In this document: positions 4,028-15,292 of the stretch, piece after piece | How the letters are laid out: each line of letters starts with the position of its first letter | Numbering within the stretch: position 1 is the first letter of the stretch | Assembly: GCA_963664225.1 (NCBI GenBank) | Contig: OY760937.1 | Span: 5,600,001 to 5,664,000, forward strand | Length of the DNA stretch: 64,000 bases | From: Verrucomicrobiia bacterium | GTDB lineage: Bacteria > Verrucomicrobiota > Verrucomicrobiia > Limisphaerales > UBA1319 | Reading direction: 5' to 3' | Position numbers and translations under genes: made by a program | Notes under the pieces: model-generated | Databases searched by the model: none | The model's input: the letters and a program-made list of their open reading frames with translations, nothing else | Told to the model about the DNA's origin: nothing

Positions 4028-4129
4028 AATAAAGCCACCTTAATGGTCTGCACCGGAATTCGCAACGCGCATTTGAAACGCGGGAACCGTCCACAAACAG
4101 GCAAGGATGCCAAGAAAGGGGGAAGGCCA

Positions 4130-6096
4130 GTAGAGTAGAGAGGAGAGCACGGAATGAAAGGCGCAAAGGCCAATGACCGCCGCTCACCTCTCCCTCGTCA
4201 AACCGGACATGCAGATTTCCCACATCCGGCTTTCGCCAGAGTCGTCTTTTCCAGATTGCATTCACAATGCCTTCAGGCCCAGTGTTTCGAGATGGGCATA
4301 GAGCGTGACTCCCTGACGGACGCGCCAGCCCCGCTGGCTTCGTCGTCGCAGGTGTTTGCCCAGCCGCACTCTCACGAAGTGGTTGATCTGGCGAAAGGCC
4401 CGTCGGGGTTGTCCGAGGTTGAAGTAGTTGCTCCAACCCCGCAAATGACGGTTGATCCGCCCGATCAACTCCGGCAGCGGCGTATGACTTTGCCCGGCAT
4501 TGATCAGCAGTCGCAACGCCTGCCTCTCCCGTTCCATCGCCTTGCCCGAAGGACACAGGTTGAGGTAGTGAAACGCCCTGCCGAATTGATCCCGGTCATA
4601 CCGGAAGGTGTAGCCCAGAAAGTCCAGGCTTTGCTCGTTGACGTTGACCACCCGGGTTTTGTCCCGGTTGATTTCCAGTGTGAGCCAGCCCTCCAGCTTT
4701 TCCTCAATCCATGCTCGCAGCTTGGGACCCATATACCGGGCCATGACCACAAAGTCGTCCGCATAGCGAACGAGCCGGGCATCCGCCCAGTGCGCCGGTC
4801 CATCCGCCCTTTGGAACAGGTGGTCGAACCAGTGCAGGTATATGTTGGCCAGTAACGGAGAGAGGACTCCGCCTTGCGGCGTGCCCCGATCCCGGCGGTT
4901 GACCCGAGGCGGTTCCTCTCCTTGGGGAGGTTCCACCACGGGGGCCGCCAGCCATTGCCGGATGAGTCCCAGAACCGCGCCGTCCACCACGCGCATCCGC
5001 ACGCAAGCCAGAAGCTTGTCGTGTGGAATGCTGTCGAAGTATCCGGCCAAGTCCGCGTCATACACTGCGTTCTTCCCCTCCTTCAGGTGTTTTTGGAGGG
5101 TTTGCAATGCGTCGTGCGCCGACCGTCCGGGCCGAAACCCGTAGGAACAATCCTCAAAGTCCGCTTCGAAGATGGGTTCCAGAATCAGCAATACCGCCGC
5201 TTGCACCACCCGATCCTTCACCGTCGGGATTCCCAGTGGCCGCAGTTTTCCGTTTGCCTTCGGTATATAGACCCGCCGCACCGGTTGGGCGCGGTAGGTC
5301 TTGTCCCGCAGGCTCTGCCTGATCGTTTCCAGAAACGCCGCTTCATTTTCAGGTGTCGCGGTGATTCGGTCGATGCTCACTCCGTCCACGCCCGGCGCCC
5401 CGCCGTTGCGCCGCACCGCAGCCCATGCCGCTTGCAGCACCTCCGGCAGGAACACCAGTCCGTAGAGACTGTAGAAGCGGAATCGCTTCTCTTGTTTGGC
5501 TTTCCGGCCCAGCTTCTGTCTCAGTTCCTGAAGTTTGGGCGGCAGGATCGCTTCCCGAAAGGAAAGTTCCTCCACCGCTTGTTCTGTCGTGGAAGTTTTC
5601 ACTTCAATCAGCTCCAGTTCCCTCTGACTCGGCTTGACTCTGGCCAGGGCTCCTTGGCTCCATCCCGGCTTGACCGGGATTTCGCAGCTACTATGAGCCC
5701 GTCCGACTCCCTGATCCTGAGCGCCCGCCGGTTATGGCTTCCCGACGTGCGTTCCCCGGTCTCGGGACCGAGGTTCAGGCAGGGTCTCCCAAGTTCCTGA
5801 TGGTTGTTTGGGTACGCGCTGTCTCCTCTGACCCCGGGGAGCTTGAAGGGTGCTTCTGGTCGAATCTTCCCCTCCAATGCTGGCTTCACCTTCTCTGACA
5901 GGCTGGCCACTCCCGCTTTAGAGTAACGAGGCTGAATCGAGTTCGCAGACGCTACGGCTCGCACCTTTGCCTTGCCCAGCTTGAACGCGGCGGGTCGCCC
6001 CACCACGCTTTGGACGCGGCTACATGACTCTCGACCTGTTATCATGATCAACTCGTTGCATTTGACTACAGCCACCAAACTTTGCTTGGCGCTTTC
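4130..6096 (-). mobile_element. Group II intron 1 (RT-encoding, no endonuclease domain), in the gltA-maf intergenic region
   Basis: Domain V AAGCCGGATGTGGGAAATCTGCATGTCCGGTTTGACGAGGG and domain VI with bulged A ending ...CTACTCTAC at 4130. 5' end inferred as GAAAGCGCCAAGC at 6096 (uncertain by about 2 nt). Confidence 0.9.
4262..5602 (-). CDS. ltrA: Group II intron reverse transcriptase/maturase
   Basis: [49 protein letters not shown], maturase X domain (LRGWSNYF). No HNH domain. Confidence 0.95.
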
Positions 6097-6151
6097 CAGA
6101 TGGCTCAGATAAACACAGAGGGGGGACCGTGAATGATGGTTCGTTTAAATG

Positions 6152-10024: not shown

Positions 10025-10918
10025 TCACTTGCGCGGGGAGGGTCGGCGGGTGGTTGTTTTTGATTTTGCCATGCCACGCAGGATGGCGAGGTTTTCGATG
10101 TCTTCGTGGAGATCCGGGGATTTGGGCGTTTCCAGACATCCGGGTGTGTTTTTGAACAGGGGATCATTGACGATATGGCGAAAGGCCTCGCTGCCGATTT
10201 TGCCCTGGCCAATGCCCGCATGGCGGTCCACGCGGGAGTTTAAATCCACCTTGGAATCGTTCAGATGAATGGCCAAAATTTCTTTTACTCCCACGGTGTC
10301 ATCGGCTTCCTGGATGGTGTTGGACCATCCTTTCGGGGTGCGAATGTCGTAACCTGCGGCGAAAAGATGGGCGGTATCCAGGCAGATTGCCAGGCGGGCG
10401 GGGGTATCGGCTGTGTCGTAAATCCTTTGGAGGTGGGCGAAACGATATCCGACGCAGGTACCCTGGCCCGCGGTAATTTCAAGGGCAATGCGAACCGGGG
10501 AGGAATGCGTGGCGCGAATGACTTCGTTCAAGCCGCTGGCTATTTGTTGAAAACCGGCTTCTTCGCCCTGACCGAGGTGAGCGCCCGGATGCAGAACCAG
10601 AAATGGCAGTTTAAGAACCGTGGCGATCTCGATTTCCTGGATGAGGGATTGAATGGATTTGTCGCGATTGGGTGAGGGCGACGCGCCCAGATTGATCAGG
10701 TAACCTGTGTGACCAAATATGCAGGCGAAGGGATGCTTGATTTGGAATTGTAGAAAGCGATCAACAATAGACGGATCGGGCGATTTTCCGAGCCATTGCA
10801 TGTTGTTCTTGACGAAAATCTGGACCACATCGCAGCCTATTGCGGCACCGCGTTCCAGGGCTTTGTCAACACCACCAATGGTGGGCATGTGAGCGCCGAA
10901 CATCATATCAGCGTCCAC
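10025..10918 (-). CDS. nfo: Endonuclease IV (AP endonuclease family 2)
   Basis: GAHM, HTGYLINL, VLHPG, LEITAGQG, CLDTAHLFAAGYD, HLNDSK, DRHA, LETP. Start may be 10906. Confidence 0.95.
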   Translation of the reverse strand: MDADMMFGAHMPTIGGVDKALERGAAIGCDVVQIFVKNNMQWLGKSPDPSIVDRFLQFQIKHPFACIFGHTGYLINLGASPSPNRDKSIQSLIQEIEIATVLKLPFLVLHPGAHLGQGEEAGFQQIASGLNEVIRATHSSPVRIALEITAGQGTCVGYRFAHLQRIYDTADTPARLAICLDTAHLFAAGYDIRTPKGWSNTIQEADDTVGVKEILAIHLNDSKVDLNSRVDRHAGIGQGKIGSEAFRHIVNDPLFKNTPGCLETPKSPDLHEDIENLAILRGMAKSKTTTRRPSPRK

Positions 10919-10954
10919 TATTCCTCATCGATGCAGGTGCTTCAACTGGTATTA

Positions 10955-11118
10955 ACCCGAAATCCGAAATAGGAACGGCCCATCTGACGCAATCATTTGG
11001 CCATCCATGGTTTGAAACCGGCTGTGGAGTATTGATTTAATACACCTTCGCCGATTGCAAATCATGGCTGTCTCAAAGCATTGCATCATCTTGACCATTC
11101 TTATTTCGGATTTCGGGT
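10955..11118. mobile_element. 164-bp MITE-like element: whole-length imperfect palindrome with TIRs and a TA duplication
   Basis: ACCCGAAATCCGAAATA at 10955 is the exact reverse complement of 11102-11118, and the arms stay alignable to the centre. Flanked by TA at 10953-54 and, after removing intron 2, TA at 13094-95. Confidence 0.8.
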
Positions 11119-13093
11119 GTGCGCCAGTGAAATTGGTAGCCTCGTGGGTGAAAGTCCCGCCGGTCGAATTAGACGGTTCACGACCGAAATGCAGCGTCCG
11201 GGACGAGGCCGTGAGGCCGAACCACAAGCGGGACGCTGAAAGAACTGTCGGGTCGTAACGAAAGTAAACCTCATCAAATGAGCTCCGAAACCGAAATAAC
11301 CGGTAAGCCGAGCCGCTACCCGAACGGCGAAGGCAGAAACGCGGCGTCATCAAATCGTCAAATGGGCGCTGTTGATTCCGGCGGAGTCAGCGAGGGCGAC
11401 ACGACAGGAAGGGAAACCAAGGTAAGCTGGGAGATCTCTGGAGGCGGGGCGATAAAGCCTCAACCGCCGGTGCAAGGAGGAACACCCTCCGAGGCCGCAC
11501 GGGCAGCCAGAGAAGTCGGAGTCTTCCATAGTAGCGAAGAAGCTGGGGCGACCAAAACCCCGGCGGAGCCAAGGGAAGGCACTTGGATCGAAGCGAATCA
11601 AAACAGCGAGGGACAGGGAGATGGCCTTGAGGGAGTGGAAACACTTTTTCAACGGATAACAACCCCGATAAAAGTTCAAAAGCTGCAGCGAGCGCTATAT
11701 TGCAAAGCCAAGGCTGAGCCGAAGTATCGGTTTTACAGCCTCTACGGAGAACTGCTGCGGAAGGACGTGCTGGAAACGGCAATGGCCTCCGTGGCGCACA
11801 ACAATGGCGCGGCTGGGATCGACGGGCAGACATGCGACGTCTATCTTGCCAGCGACGAAGCCTGGGACCAATGGCGGAACCAACTGCTGGAGGAGTTACG
11901 CACGAAGAAGTATCGGCCAAGCCCGGTGAAGCGTGTGTATATACCAAAAGGAGACGGGAAGCTGCGACCCCTGGGCATCCCGACAGTGAAAGACCGGGTG
12001 GTGCAGACAGCGGTGGTGATTGTATTGCTGCCGATTCTGGAAGCCGATAGTCATCCGAACAGTTACGCCTATCATCCCAAACGCAATGCCCACCAAGCAA
12101 TGGAGGCGATCAAGAAGGCTACGCTGACAGGACGCGTCGAAGTTATAGACGCGGACTTAAGCGGGTATTTTGACAGCATTCCCCACAGGCGTTTGTTGCG
12201 CATAGTGGCCAAGCGGGTCAGCGATGGAACAATTCTCAAGCTGATCGCAGGATGGCTGCGCGCGCCCGTGAATGAACCGCAAAGCGACACAGGGAAAGGC
12301 GGGACAAAGGGGGGGCAAGGTCAGAATCGACGGGGGACTCCGCAAGGCGGGGTTGTATCGCCGATTTTAGCCAATGCATACCTCAACCAGTTGGATTGGG
12401 AAGTCAACGAACGCTGCGAACTCAAACCCGTGATGGTGAGATACGCGGATGATTTCGTGATACTCGGACAGCCGGGGCAGGGACGGGAACTGATGGAACG
12501 ACTGGAACGATGGCTGAAGCAACGCGAGTTAGTGCTCAACGAGAAGAAGACCCGCTTGGTGGACCTCCGCCAGGATGGCATCAAATTCTTGGGATTCGCG
12601 CTAACAATGCGACAGGGGAAGGGGAAATGGAAATATCCGCATGTGGAACCCCATCCCAAGAGCCAGAAGAAGTTTCGAGACGGGATTCGGGAGAAACTCA
12701 ACCGAAGCACGCTATGGCGTGATATCGGAGAGGTGATTCCCGAGCTCAACAAGAAACTCAAAGGTTGGAAGGGTTACTTTCACTACGGGAACAGCACCAA
12801 GGTGATGGGCCAGATGAACGAATACGTCAGCAGCAAGTTACAACGATGGTTGTGGCGCAAACACGGATGTAGTCGGGCGCAATGGTCCACATACCCCAAG
12901 GAGGATCTCTATGAGCGTTATGGTTTATACCAAATGCCGGAATATGCGGCATGGAAACGATGACGTCGAAGCGATGCAACGTATGATCCCCGGAGAGCCG
13001 GATGCGGGAAAACCGCCTGTCCGGTTCGATGAGGGGCGAAATGCGACGGTCATTGGCCACGGCCATTCAATCCGTCCATTTCGCCTACTCTAC
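11119..13093 (+). mobile_element. Group II intron 2 (RT-encoding, no endonuclease domain)
   Basis: 5' GTGCGCC at 11119; EBS1 loop ACCCGA at 11318-23; domain V GAGCCGGATGCGGGAAAACCGCCTGTCCGGTTCGATGAGGGG; domain VI with bulged A ending CTACTCTAC at 13093. Confidence 0.95.
11635..12963 (+). CDS. ltrA: Group II intron reverse transcriptase/maturase
   Basis: [48 protein letters not shown]. The ORF is open from 11278, but that part overlaps ribozyme structure; start near GTG 11635 is uncertain. Confidence 0.93.
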   Translation: METLFQRITTPIKVQKLQRALYCKAKAEPKYRFYSLYGELLRKDVLETAMASVAHNNGAAGIDGQTCDVYLASDEAWDQWRNQLLEELRTKKYRPSPVKRVYIPKGDGKLRPLGIPTVKDRVVQTAVVIVLLPILEADSHPNSYAYHPKRNAHQAMEAIKKATLTGRVEVIDADLSGYFDSIPHRRLLRIVAKRVSDGTILKLIAGWLRAPVNEPQSDTGKGGTKGGQGQNRRGTPQGGVVSPILANAYLNQLDWEVNERCELKPVMVRYADDFVILGQPGQGRELMERLERWLKQRELVLNEKKTRLVDLRQDGIKFLGFALTMRQGKGKWKYPHVEPHPKSQKKFRDGIREKLNRSTLWRDIGEVIPELNKKLKGWKGYFHYGNSTKVMGQMNEYVSSKLQRWLWRKHGCSRAQWSTYPKEDLYERYGLYQMPEYAAWKR

Positions 13094-14310
13094 TAAAGCA
13101 ATTCGGGGGTGTTCATCAAATCGGCAATGCGACTGAGCAGGCGTCCCGCTGCGCCGCCGTCAATGACACGGTGGTCGAAACTCAAGGTGAGATTCGCTTC
13201 CATGATGGGGACGAATTGGCCGGATTTTTCATCCCAGAAGGGTGATTTGCGTCCGGCTCCCAGTCCCAGCACGAGAGTTTGTTCGGGCAAGGGAATGGGG
13301 GTTGCCCACATCAGGCCAAAGGTGCCGAAATTGGTGACGGTGGCAATGGATCCGCCGGTGGCGCCCTGGGGCAACTGGCGTTTACGGGCGAGTTCAACCA
13401 TGTCGCTGTAAGGTTGGATCAGATCCTTGAGCAGGGTTTGATCGACGTTTCGAAACACGGGCACCAGAACTCCGTCCTCTGCTTCGACAGCAAAACCCAG
13501 GTCAATCGATGCGGGATGCATGATGCGTTTGCCGACCAACCGTCCTGCAGGGGCGCTGTTTTCGGCCAGGGCCAGGGCCAGAGCGCGCAACGCGTAGAGG
13601 GTTGGACCGGGTTTGGGATTGCAGGCCTTGCGATGCGCCAGCATGGGGTCCAGGCAGACCGGCAGGCCCACGGTTGCAATGGGGCGCGTCCAACTGCGGC
13701 GCATGGCGTCCGCTACCGCGACGCGCATGGTCGATGCAGGGCTGGTTTTGTTTTTTTCAAGGCCGGACAGAAATTTCTCAAAATCCTCAATGGTGACGCG
13801 GCCACCCGCGCCGCTTCCGGCCACCCCCGCCAAGTCAGCGGCATTCAGACCCAATTCCATGATGCGCGCCTTCATGCGCGGAGACATGTAACTCGCCCCG
13901 CGTGCATGGGCGGGCACGGGCAAGCCGTTGACGGTGGGTTCGACAATGTGTTGCGGCAGGCTGCCAGCGGGCGACCCGGGCAATGGGCCCTGGTTGTTTG
14001 AAGGAACAGATGTCGCAGAGGCATTTGCCGGCTGCTGGTCCAGGCCCAGTTTTGCGGCTTCCTCAATGCTGGCATCTAGATATCCCAACACAACGCCAAC
14101 GGGATAGCTTTGATCGATTTCCACCAACCAGCGGGCGATCGTGCCTGCGCAGGGGGCGGTGACGGTCATGGTAGCCTTATTGGTCTCCACTTCGAGGACA
14201 TCCTGACCGGAAGCGACCCATTCACCTGGTTTGACGAGAAGGTTGACGACCTTGGCCTCAGCGATGGATTCACCGAGTTGAGGCATGATAATGGGAACGG
14301 GAAGCGTCAT
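13093..14310 (-). CDS. 2-oxoacid dehydrogenase E2 (dihydrolipoamide acyltransferase)
   Basis: MPQLGESIAEA, lipoyl motif EVETNKA, E1/E3-binding GSGAGGRVT, catalytic FDHRVIDG. Confidence 0.92.
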   Translation of the reverse strand: MTLPVPIIMPQLGESIAEAKVVNLLVKPGEWVASGQDVLEVETNKATMTVTAPCAGTIARWLVEIDQSYPVGVVLGYLDASIEEAAKLGLDQQPANASATSVPSNNQGPLPGSPAGSLPQHIVEPTVNGLPVPAHARGASYMSPRMKARIMELGLNAADLAGVAGSGAGGRVTIEDFEKFLSGLEKNKTSPASTMRVAVADAMRRSWTRPIATVGLPVCLDPMLAHRKACNPKPGPTLYALRALALALAENSAPAGRLVGKRIMHPASIDLGFAVEAEDGVLVPVFRNVDQTLLKDLIQPYSDMVELARKRQLPQGATGGSIATVTNFGTFGLMWATPIPLPEQTLVLGLGAGRKSPFWDEKSGQFVPIMEANLTLSFDHRVIDGGAAGRLLSRIADLMNTPELL

Positions 14311-14326
14311 GGCGATTGAGATTGGT

Positions 14327-15292
14327 TTAGGTGCGCAACATTTGGCGTGCGGCGTCTGCGATGGCGCGCGCGGTCGGACGGTGAACCCCCCATAGATTGG
14401 GGTGATACGGTACGGGAGTATCCTTGGCGTTGAGGCGCTGTGGGGGGACATCGAGCAAGTCGAGTCCTTCCGTGGCCACGCGGGCGATCACCTCGGCGGT
14501 CACACCACCCCAAGGCCAGCTTTCACCCACGCACAAGAGACGACCCGTGCGGGCGACTGAGGCCATCACCGTATCGGTGTCCAAAGGTTTGATGGAACGC
14601 AAATCGACGATTTCGATCTGGTAGCCTTCCAAAGCCAGTTCCTCGGCGGCAGCCAGGGCCTCATGCACCATGGCGCTGTAGGCGACGATGGTCATGTCGC
14701 GTCCGGGAAGGGCCACGCGCGCCTTGCCCGCTGGCAGGGCGGTGGTCGGCAGCGCCTCGGCCTTCAGATGGTAATAAAGGAATTTATGTTCAAAAAAGAT
14801 CACAGGATCGTCAATCGCCACGGCTTCCAGGAGCATGCTATAGGCGTCCTCCACCGTTGCCGGGGTAAAGGCGATCAAGCCCGGATAATGCGCGTAGATT
14901 GCTTCCAGACTCTGACTATGAAATGGACCGCTGCCCGACGTGCCGCCCGAAGGCAGACGGATGGTAATGGGGCAGGGCACGCCCGTTCGCCAGAAGAGAG
15001 TGGAGGCCTGGTTGACAATCTGGTTGAGGCCCACTGTGGAAAAGTCCGCAAATTGGATTTCAATGATGGGACGCATGCCCTCGATGGCCGCGCCAACCGC
15101 CGAACCGATCATCGCATCTTCGCTAATTGGGGCGTCAATAACGCGTCCGGGAAATTGTTGAGCCAGATTCTTGGTGGCCTTGAAAGCGCCTCCAAAAGCG
15201 CCCACATCCTGGCCGTAAATATAAACGCGCGGATCATCCGCGAGGGCTTTGGCCTGCGCGGCGCGAATGGCATCCAAATAGGTGATACTCAT
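14327..15292 (-). CDS. 2-oxoacid dehydrogenase E1 beta subunit
   Basis: GQDVGAFGGAFKAT, DAPISE, EIQFADF, FHSQS, EHKFLY, DLRSIKPLD. Confidence 0.95.
   Translation of the reverse strand: MSITYLDAIRAAQAKALADDPRVYIYGQDVGAFGGAFKATKNLAQQFPGRVIDAPISEDAMIGSAVGAAIEGMRPIIEIQFADFSTVGLNQIVNQASTLFWRTGVPCPITIRLPSGGTSGSGPFHSQSLEAIYAHYPGLIAFTPATVEDAYSMLLEAVAIDDPVIFFEHKFLYYHLKAEALPTTALPAGKARVALPGRDMTIVAYSAMVHEALAAAEELALEGYQIEIVDLRSIKPLDTDTVMASVARTGRLLCVGESWPWGGVTAEVIARVATEGLDLLDVPPQRLNAKDTPVPYHPNLWGVHRPTARAIADAARQMLRT

Follow-up and report, generated by a model that had tools for sequence, protein, structure and literature searches.

An endonuclease-less group II intron at the terminal inverted repeat tips of an IS1380-family element and its MITE in a Verrucomicrobiia genome

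Introduction

Like the intron described here, the class D group II intron RmInt1 is endonuclease-less and homes into a multi-copy insertion sequence (IS), ISRm2011-2, its target lying inside the transposase gene and not in the repeats. A preference of RmInt1 for the lagging-strand template is reported in PMC8914252 and PMC1802570. For RmInt2 of Sinorhizobium meliloti GR4 (class D, IIB3), the account given in PMC4615759 places all copies within the inverted repeats of ISRm17, a habit said there to double the targets and to ensure that one of them lies on the lagging strand; a 2-nt linker between the intron-binding sites (IBS) and tolerance of a 4-nt pairing with the second exon-binding site (EBS2) are also described there. 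The present work concerns a group II intron found in a stretch of 64,000 nt (hereafter the window) from the genome of a Verrucomicrobiia bacterium, a single 5.78-Mb contig (G000:C1:5600001-5664000). The intron adjoins a miniature inverted-repeat transposable element (MITE) and is specific for the tip of its terminal inverted repeat (TIR), a multi-copy target with which it pairs through a covarying EBS1/IBS1 interaction; its protein has no endonuclease domain, and its strand choice along the chromosome is block-wise.

The strategy of homing into IS inverted repeats is already published with RmInt2 and ISRm17 (PMC4615759). The likeness to RmInt2 is that of an endonuclease-less intron whose copies keep to the inverted repeats of an IS family and use both of them, with a 2-nt linker. 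However, at one locus (NC_019848) RmInt2 interrupts the IS about 20 nt into the left repeat and is read towards its interior, whereas the present intron stands beyond the last TIR base, reads outwards, uses another IS family and has a MITE as its main target. Class D, to which RmInt1 and RmInt2 belong, was considered for the present intron and rejected, because RmInt2 matches the Rfam family RF01999 (107 bits) and the present intron RF02005, and because the two intron-encoded proteins (IEPs) are only 28% identical.

Other lineages offer partial parallels. IIE and IIF introns are described by Nagy et al. (2013, PMC3753933) as having a 5-nt domain V loop, a ribozyme of 450-700 nt and EBS1 and EBS2 in domain Id, while being otherwise IIB-like; the present intron resembles them in its GAAAA loop, its ribozyme of about 634 nt and an IEP without endonuclease domain. 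PMC7923331 reports IIB introns just after attC-like stem-loops. These, together with IIC and IIC-attC introns, share with the present one a placement after inverted repeats of mobile or terminator elements, but it recognises 7 + 4-9 nt by sequence pairing, and no hairpin is needed. In the open-access literature, mostly at the level of titles and abstracts, no relevant description of group II introns targeting MITEs was found, and a search of the same literature for group II introns together with repetitive extragenic palindromic sequences returned only a table entry (2/9 for a P. putida intron). New here are the junction-precise external placement, the use of MITEs, another intron lineage and IS family, and a quantitative strand asymmetry.

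Results

Occupancy of transposon tips across the genome

The genome holds 19 copies of the intron, each 100% identical over 1975 nt. At all 19 the 5' exon ends in TCGGA(T/G)TTCGGGT, and the 3' exon begins with TAAA (10 copies) or TTAA (9), with T at +1 and A at +3 and +4 throughout. At 19 of 19 sites the identical intron stands after one and the same 13-mer, a site choice that goes far beyond chance. By our own composition estimate about 0.4 exact 13-mers would be expected by chance. An initial annotation, made from the window alone, had proposed that the intron uses a proliferating repeat family as target, and the genome bears this out, with 19 identical copies at a shared tip. Copies at unrelated sequences were looked for and none was found. 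The features of the window copy are as follows (+, forward strand).

10952-10954, no strand: left flank TTA, left copy of the target duplication; only TA recurs on the right here
10955-11118, no strand: MITE of 164 bp without open reading frame (ORF), left TIR 10955-10975, right TIR 11098-11118
11101-11109, +: IBS2 TTATTTCGG, exon positions -18 to -10
11112-11118, +: IBS1 TTCGGGT, exon positions -7 to -1, last 7 bases of the TIR
11119-13093, +: complete group II intron, GTGCG...CTAC (sequence and Rfam)
11291-11299, +: EBS2 CCGAAATAA, variable centre of a large internal loop of domain I
11318-11324, +: EBS1 ACCCGAA, terminal loop of the domain Id3 hairpin (Rfam consensus and covariation in five relatives)
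11623-12963, +: IEP with reverse transcriptase (RT) and maturase (X) domains, about 442-446 aa, ORF in domain IV
12995-13093, +: domains V and VI and 3' splice site, inside the RF00029 match
13094-13096, +: 3' exon start TAA, right copy of the duplication; T at 13094 is +1 and a candidate IBS3

For a census of targets, 13-mers with up to two mismatches were collected and retained if exact or if their upstream context matched an element. This gave 58 tips, and the TIR is accordingly multi-copy rather than single-copy. Introns occupied 8 of 22 right and 5 of 22 left MITE ends, three of five IS ends on one side and one of five on the other, and two of the four remaining tips. Exact tips were occupied in 19 of 51 cases (15/41 with T at -8, 4/10 with G at -8), whereas tips mismatched elsewhere were never occupied (0/7). 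No element carried introns at both of its ends. Hence 17 of the 19 copies stand at tips of recognisable elements, both ends of which are used, and two at solo tips (G000:C1 2063462-2065436, minus strand, and 3974269-3976243, plus strand), where the intron adjoins a TIR-like tip of 13-21 nt without element body. One of these two is preceded by the end of a unique coding region; the second interrupts a member of another repeat family, the paralogues of which continue differently after ...TCATTAATAATT.

Target recognition

In the window, the intron begins with GTGCG at 11119, immediately 3' of ...TTTCGGGT (ending at 11118), and ends with ...CTAC at 13093, followed by TAAAGC. Its EBS1, ACCCGAA, is complementary to the last 7 exon bases. 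A linker of 2 nt (-9 and -8, the latter being the variable T/G position) separates IBS1 from IBS2. EBS2 forms a 9-nt run with TTATTTCGG of MITE right ends and runs of at most 4 nt with five other exons. The only part of IBS2 common to all 19 targets is TCGG (-13 to -10, 11106-11109).

Five relatives, each with a known exon and each in a different target, served for covariation. Four of them (L016, L018, L019 and L020) are ORF-containing introns with about 83-87% identity over the 5' 420 nt, and L005 is an ORF-less derivative of about 700 nt from a genome of the same order. In every case EBS1 follows the exon of its own intron: ACCTGAA against TTCAGGT in L016, TCCTGAA against TTCAGGA in L018, CCACGGAT against ATCCGTGG in L019, GCATCCA against TGGATGC in L020 and GCCGTAA against TTACGGC in L005. 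The six introns thus show own-exon runs of 7, 7, 7, 8, 7 and 7 nt, whereas 26 of the 30 cross-pairs reach only 3-4 nt; the other four (5, 6, 6 and 7 nt) correspond to similar targets or G-U pairs. Pairing in the stem of the EBS1 hairpin is kept among the relatives by wobble pairs and one compensatory change. The EBS1 proposed in the initial annotation, ACCCGAA at 11318-11324, therefore stands, being placed in the EBS1 loop and changing together with the 5' exon in 5/5 relatives. Its EBS2 candidate (11284-11299) holds in part: 11291-11299 is retained, and TCCGAAA (11284-11290) is dropped as lying mostly within a stretch conserved in all relatives.

The sites of these relatives differ in structure. 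L019, with an IEP 76% identical to the present one, adjoins the 3' base of a 75-nt hairpin (L019 2406-2480) to the nucleotide, the arms of this hairpin being tandem 9-nt units. L020 is inserted within a hairpin of about 130 nt, 3 nt from its base, and at the sites of L018 and L005 there is no hairpin. The first 508 nt of L005 (G034:C102, minus strand, about 13087-13781) share 71% identity with the present intron; this derivative has an EBS1/IBS1 pair of its own, and a long perfect palindrome lies about 80 nt upstream of its insertion site.

Strand choice along the chromosome

The intron copies fall into strand blocks, namely five on the plus strand from 0.045 to 0.95 Mb, six on the minus strand from 1.66 to 2.19 Mb and eight on the plus strand from 2.99 to 5.61 Mb. 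The six minus-strand copies are contiguous on the circle, for which the chance probability is 7e-4. A replichore model was built on markers independent of the intron, with the origin at dnaA (2,990,590-2,991,069) and the terminus at the switch of GC skew and gene orientation near 1.3-1.4 Mb. Under this model, exact tips oriented on the lagging-strand template are occupied in 18 of 26 cases and those on the other strand in 1 of 25 (Fisher p = 1e-6). Placing the origin-side switch anywhere between 2.19 and 2.986 Mb would change these counts to 19/26 and 0/25. The plus strand is G-rich over about 3.6 Mb (from 3.6 Mb through 0 to 1.3 Mb).

Intron structure and class

Both ribozyme regions are recognised by Rfam models, RF02005 (D1-D4-6) at 11151-11396 with 54.9 bits (gathering score 49, model positions 1-225) and RF00029 (domains V and VI) at 12993-13093 with 49.3 bits (gathering score 40). 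Domain V has an AGC catalytic triad and a 5-nt loop (GCGG-GAAAA-CCGC), and the ribozyme part amounts to about 634 nt (504 + 130 nt outside the ORF). The GUGYG start, AY end, domain V triad, domain I-IV fold, RT-maturase ORF and EBS1-IBS1 pairing of a mobile group II intron are all present. The IEP matches RVT_1 (1e-34), GIIM (7e-14) and TIGR04416 (357 bits, cut-off 300) and ends about 25 aa past GIIM; no HNH match indicating a DNA-binding/endonuclease (D/En) domain was obtained at E <= 0.01. Its true start is uncertain, because the reading frame is open from 11278 and the first in-frame start after the onset of domain IV is a GTG at 11635.

As for the class, the 5-nt domain V loop, a ribozyme within 450-700 nt and an IIB-like structure agree with groups IIE and IIF. 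Judged by these sequence features it would be an endonuclease-less, IIB-like intron with IIE/IIF-type features. Group IIC was rejected in view of the 7-nt EBS1, the 9-nt EBS2 candidate and the 6 of 19 sites without hairpin. With AGC in domain V and an EBS1 of 7 nt the ribozyme is not IIC-like, which agrees with what had been noted at the outset on domain V. A search of the Protein Data Bank with the IEP gave IIC-type RTs as best matches (7uim, 8e-53), by which the class is not settled; among plasmids, its best relatives reach about 40% identity and are not labelled by class. A search for the RF02005 family name in the literature led only to Rfam release papers.

A scan for sigma-70-like promoters, uninformative for this organism, found none in the MITE or the 5' part of the intron; it returned 2 sites against 1.3 expected, both within or just after the ORF. 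When the contigs of four public runs were compared with window positions 10500-13600, one of the runs, the metagenome X6, contained the intron as a contig of 1911 nt bearing 7 differences; these runs, in which no contig spanned the intron, showed no empty-site allele.

A second group II intron family is present in the window at 4127-6098 on the minus strand (RF02005, 70.4 bits; RF00029, 43.1 bits). It has four copies about 99% identical, at 1,676,532, 2,329,487 and 5,161,411 and in the window. The unit common to the copies begins with TGGAAAGCGCC and lacks GUGYG where it would be expected, and its flanks are not TIR tips, the upstream ends being T-rich (...TC/TT before TGG).

Host elements and neighbourhood

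The 21-nt TIRs of the MITE match at 20 of 21 positions in the window copy. As single-stranded DNA, the element with 10 nt of flank per side is predicted to fold into a long hairpin at -44.4 kcal/mol; a sub-threshold Rfam match to MIR8007 over the MITE (37 bits versus 195) was discarded as merely reflecting this hairpin. The genome contains 22 full-length copies, three of them IS-interrupted, and the 18 other uninterrupted copies are 93.3-99.4% identical to that of the window. The element is thus short and ORF-less, with TIRs, a target duplication, many copies and a tip in common with an autonomous IS, as expected of a MITE. This IS, of 1534 bp, has five identical copies and encodes a 474-aa transposase of the IS1380 family (NF033539, 227 bits, cut-off 180; also PF13701). 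Its 13-nt tip is the same as that of the MITE, except for T/G at -8.

In the IS1380 family the target duplication is 4-5 bp long. All five IS copies have here a 3-bp TTA/TAA duplication, and 24 of 26 paired elements have a matching 3-bp TNA (TTA or TAA in 23, TGA in one); one further MITE, read by eye, has TCA/TGA. The exceptions are the window copy (TTA left, TAA right) and the copy at 264,553. The initial annotation had the intron exactly at the end of the MITE TIR, which is correct, and followed by a duplicated TA, which is not: since the family rule is a 3-bp TNA, this TA is the shared part of an imperfect duplication.

The MITE is in turn a hot spot for insertion at its centre (around TTAAT). 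The IS1380-family IS lies inside two MITEs (G000:C1 828001-831676 and 2984654-2988329), and a different IS of 1.86 kb, with a 545-aa DDE_Tnp_1 transposase, occupies the MITE centre at 264553-266581, that MITE being without matching duplication.

The MITE and intron unit lies between two minus-strand genes, for a 2-oxoacid dehydrogenase E2 acyltransferase and a xylose-isomerase-like TIM-barrel protein. The insertion reaches into the E2 acyltransferase gene (13093-14451, minus strand) at its stop codon (13093-13095). This codon now reads TAG, composed of the duplication TA and the last intron base; it would be TAA with the MITE only, and TAA at the empty site.

Discussion

Very probably, this endonuclease-less IIB-like intron retrohomes by EBS1/EBS2 pairing to the TIR tip of the IS1380-family IS and MITE, on the lagging-strand template. 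The EBS1 and EBS2 loops would pair with the last 13 nt of the TIR common to both elements, and reverse splicing would then place the intron precisely where the final TIR base meets the first T of the TNA duplication. An intron inserted at this junction stands immediately beside the transposon, not within it, and is directed outwards. Each element would present the target once per strand, and the copy on the lagging-strand template would be the one used, as it is by RmInt1 and RmInt2. We infer that strand choice is due to replication-fork priming, that EBS2 pairing matters and that the adjoining transposon is still mobile.

Several points weigh against this account. Splicing and mobility are inferences, as is the part played by replication. 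Covariation of EBS2 was looked for and not found in four of the five relatives, in which own-exon runs reach 4, 3, 3 and 4 nt (L016, L019, L020 and L005; 6 nt in L018), and part of the EBS2 pairing involves A/U-rich sequence that the loops of other introns match as well. The solo tips may be remnants of lost elements or chance sites. One copy (2,986,270), about 4 kb away from dnaA, departs in its strand from the replichore model. This model is itself uncertain, because the GC skew of the genome is atypical, being positive over most of the plus strand and near zero from 1.8 to 3.6 Mb. As dnaA lies at 2.99 Mb, the replichores are either very unequal or recently rearranged.

The best placed of the other explanations, although an unlikely one, is structure-guided insertion in the manner of IIC introns, in which the base of the MITE DNA hairpin would be recognised and sequence pairing would be secondary. 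IIC introns are reported to insert after stem-loops (PMC1702495), the intron site lies at the 3' base of the fold predicted for the MITE and its flanks, and the geometry fits relatives L019 and L020. However, insertion at the base of a stem-loop, which the initial annotation had suggested, is not the mechanism, because four of the 19 copies stand at ends of the 1534-bp IS and two at solo tips, where there is no such hairpin. Besides, none of the seven mismatched tips is occupied, although six are on full-length MITEs and three on the permissive strand, and on that strand the difference between mismatched (0/3) and exact tips (18/26) gives p of about 0.015 by hand calculation. The sites of L018 and L005, the AGC triad and the 7-nt EBS1 argue in the same direction, and a folded hairpin would hide IBS1 and IBS2.

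It is more doubtful still that the transposase assists integration, its cut between TIR and flank supplying the nick or 3' OH that an endonuclease-less intron lacks. The insertion point does coincide exactly with the expected transposase cleavage site, and the IEP is without endonuclease domain. Yet a transposase cuts both ends alike, which does not agree with an occupancy of 18/26 on one strand and 1/25 on the other, and the two occupied solo tips have no second end. We also know of no mechanism of transposase-assisted intron integration, which was counted against this explanation.

ISEcp1, a member of the IS1380 family, moves adjacent DNA by one-ended transposition. That a transposase moved MITE and intron as one composite unit, so that the intron spread as DNA and not by retrohoming, is nevertheless extremely improbable: the IS is of that family, and the 3-bp duplication bracketing the whole unit is as this explanation predicts too, but it is contradicted by introns that are 100% identical while the adjoining MITEs are just 93.3-99.4% identical to the window copy, by introns found at right and left MITE ends (8 and 5), at each of the two IS ends (3 and 1) and at two solo tips, by an EBS1 complementary to the tip and covarying in relatives, and by a block-wise strand choice that a transposase would not yield.

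In a genome of another genus of the same family (G003; 93% complete, 560 contigs) the 13-nt tip recurs in at least 28 exact copies, at the ends of an IS with 90% identity in its transposase, and no match to the intron was found there. Because G003 has the tips without a detected intron, the target family is older and wider than the intron. Neither MITE nor intron was found in a genome of the same genus (G001, 93% complete), and a DNA search for the MITE over 21 genomes (20 relatives and G000) gave a match in G000 only. The intron looks like a recent arrival whose permissive sites are nearly filled. G003 is a naive genome full of targets and could serve to test invasion.

No new mechanism is revealed by this system. 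With it, the use of IS inverted repeats as targets, published for rhizobial class D introns, extends to another lineage, to the IS1380 family and to non-autonomous MITEs. It also offers a clean natural data set on target choice by endonuclease-less introns, with 19 identical copies, 51 exact targets, both strands offered by each element, and near-saturation on one strand (18/26) against 1/25 on the other. Placement at the junction of tip and duplication leaves the transposon uninterrupted, and an intron outside the tip would never disable its host element. IBS1 and IBS2 would come from the transposon tip, and the T at +1, with A at +3 and +4, from a TNA/TTAA-like preference of the transposase. 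With tip and target preference supplying the whole site, each new IS or MITE insertion would create two fresh intron sites. A joint reading, which we find conceivable while leaning slightly against it, is that transposition itself makes the target, transposase, MITE and intron forming a self-renewing chain, and that specialising on the arms of palindromic repeats is perhaps a general habit of IIE/IIF-like introns without endonuclease, as relatives L019 and L020 may suggest.

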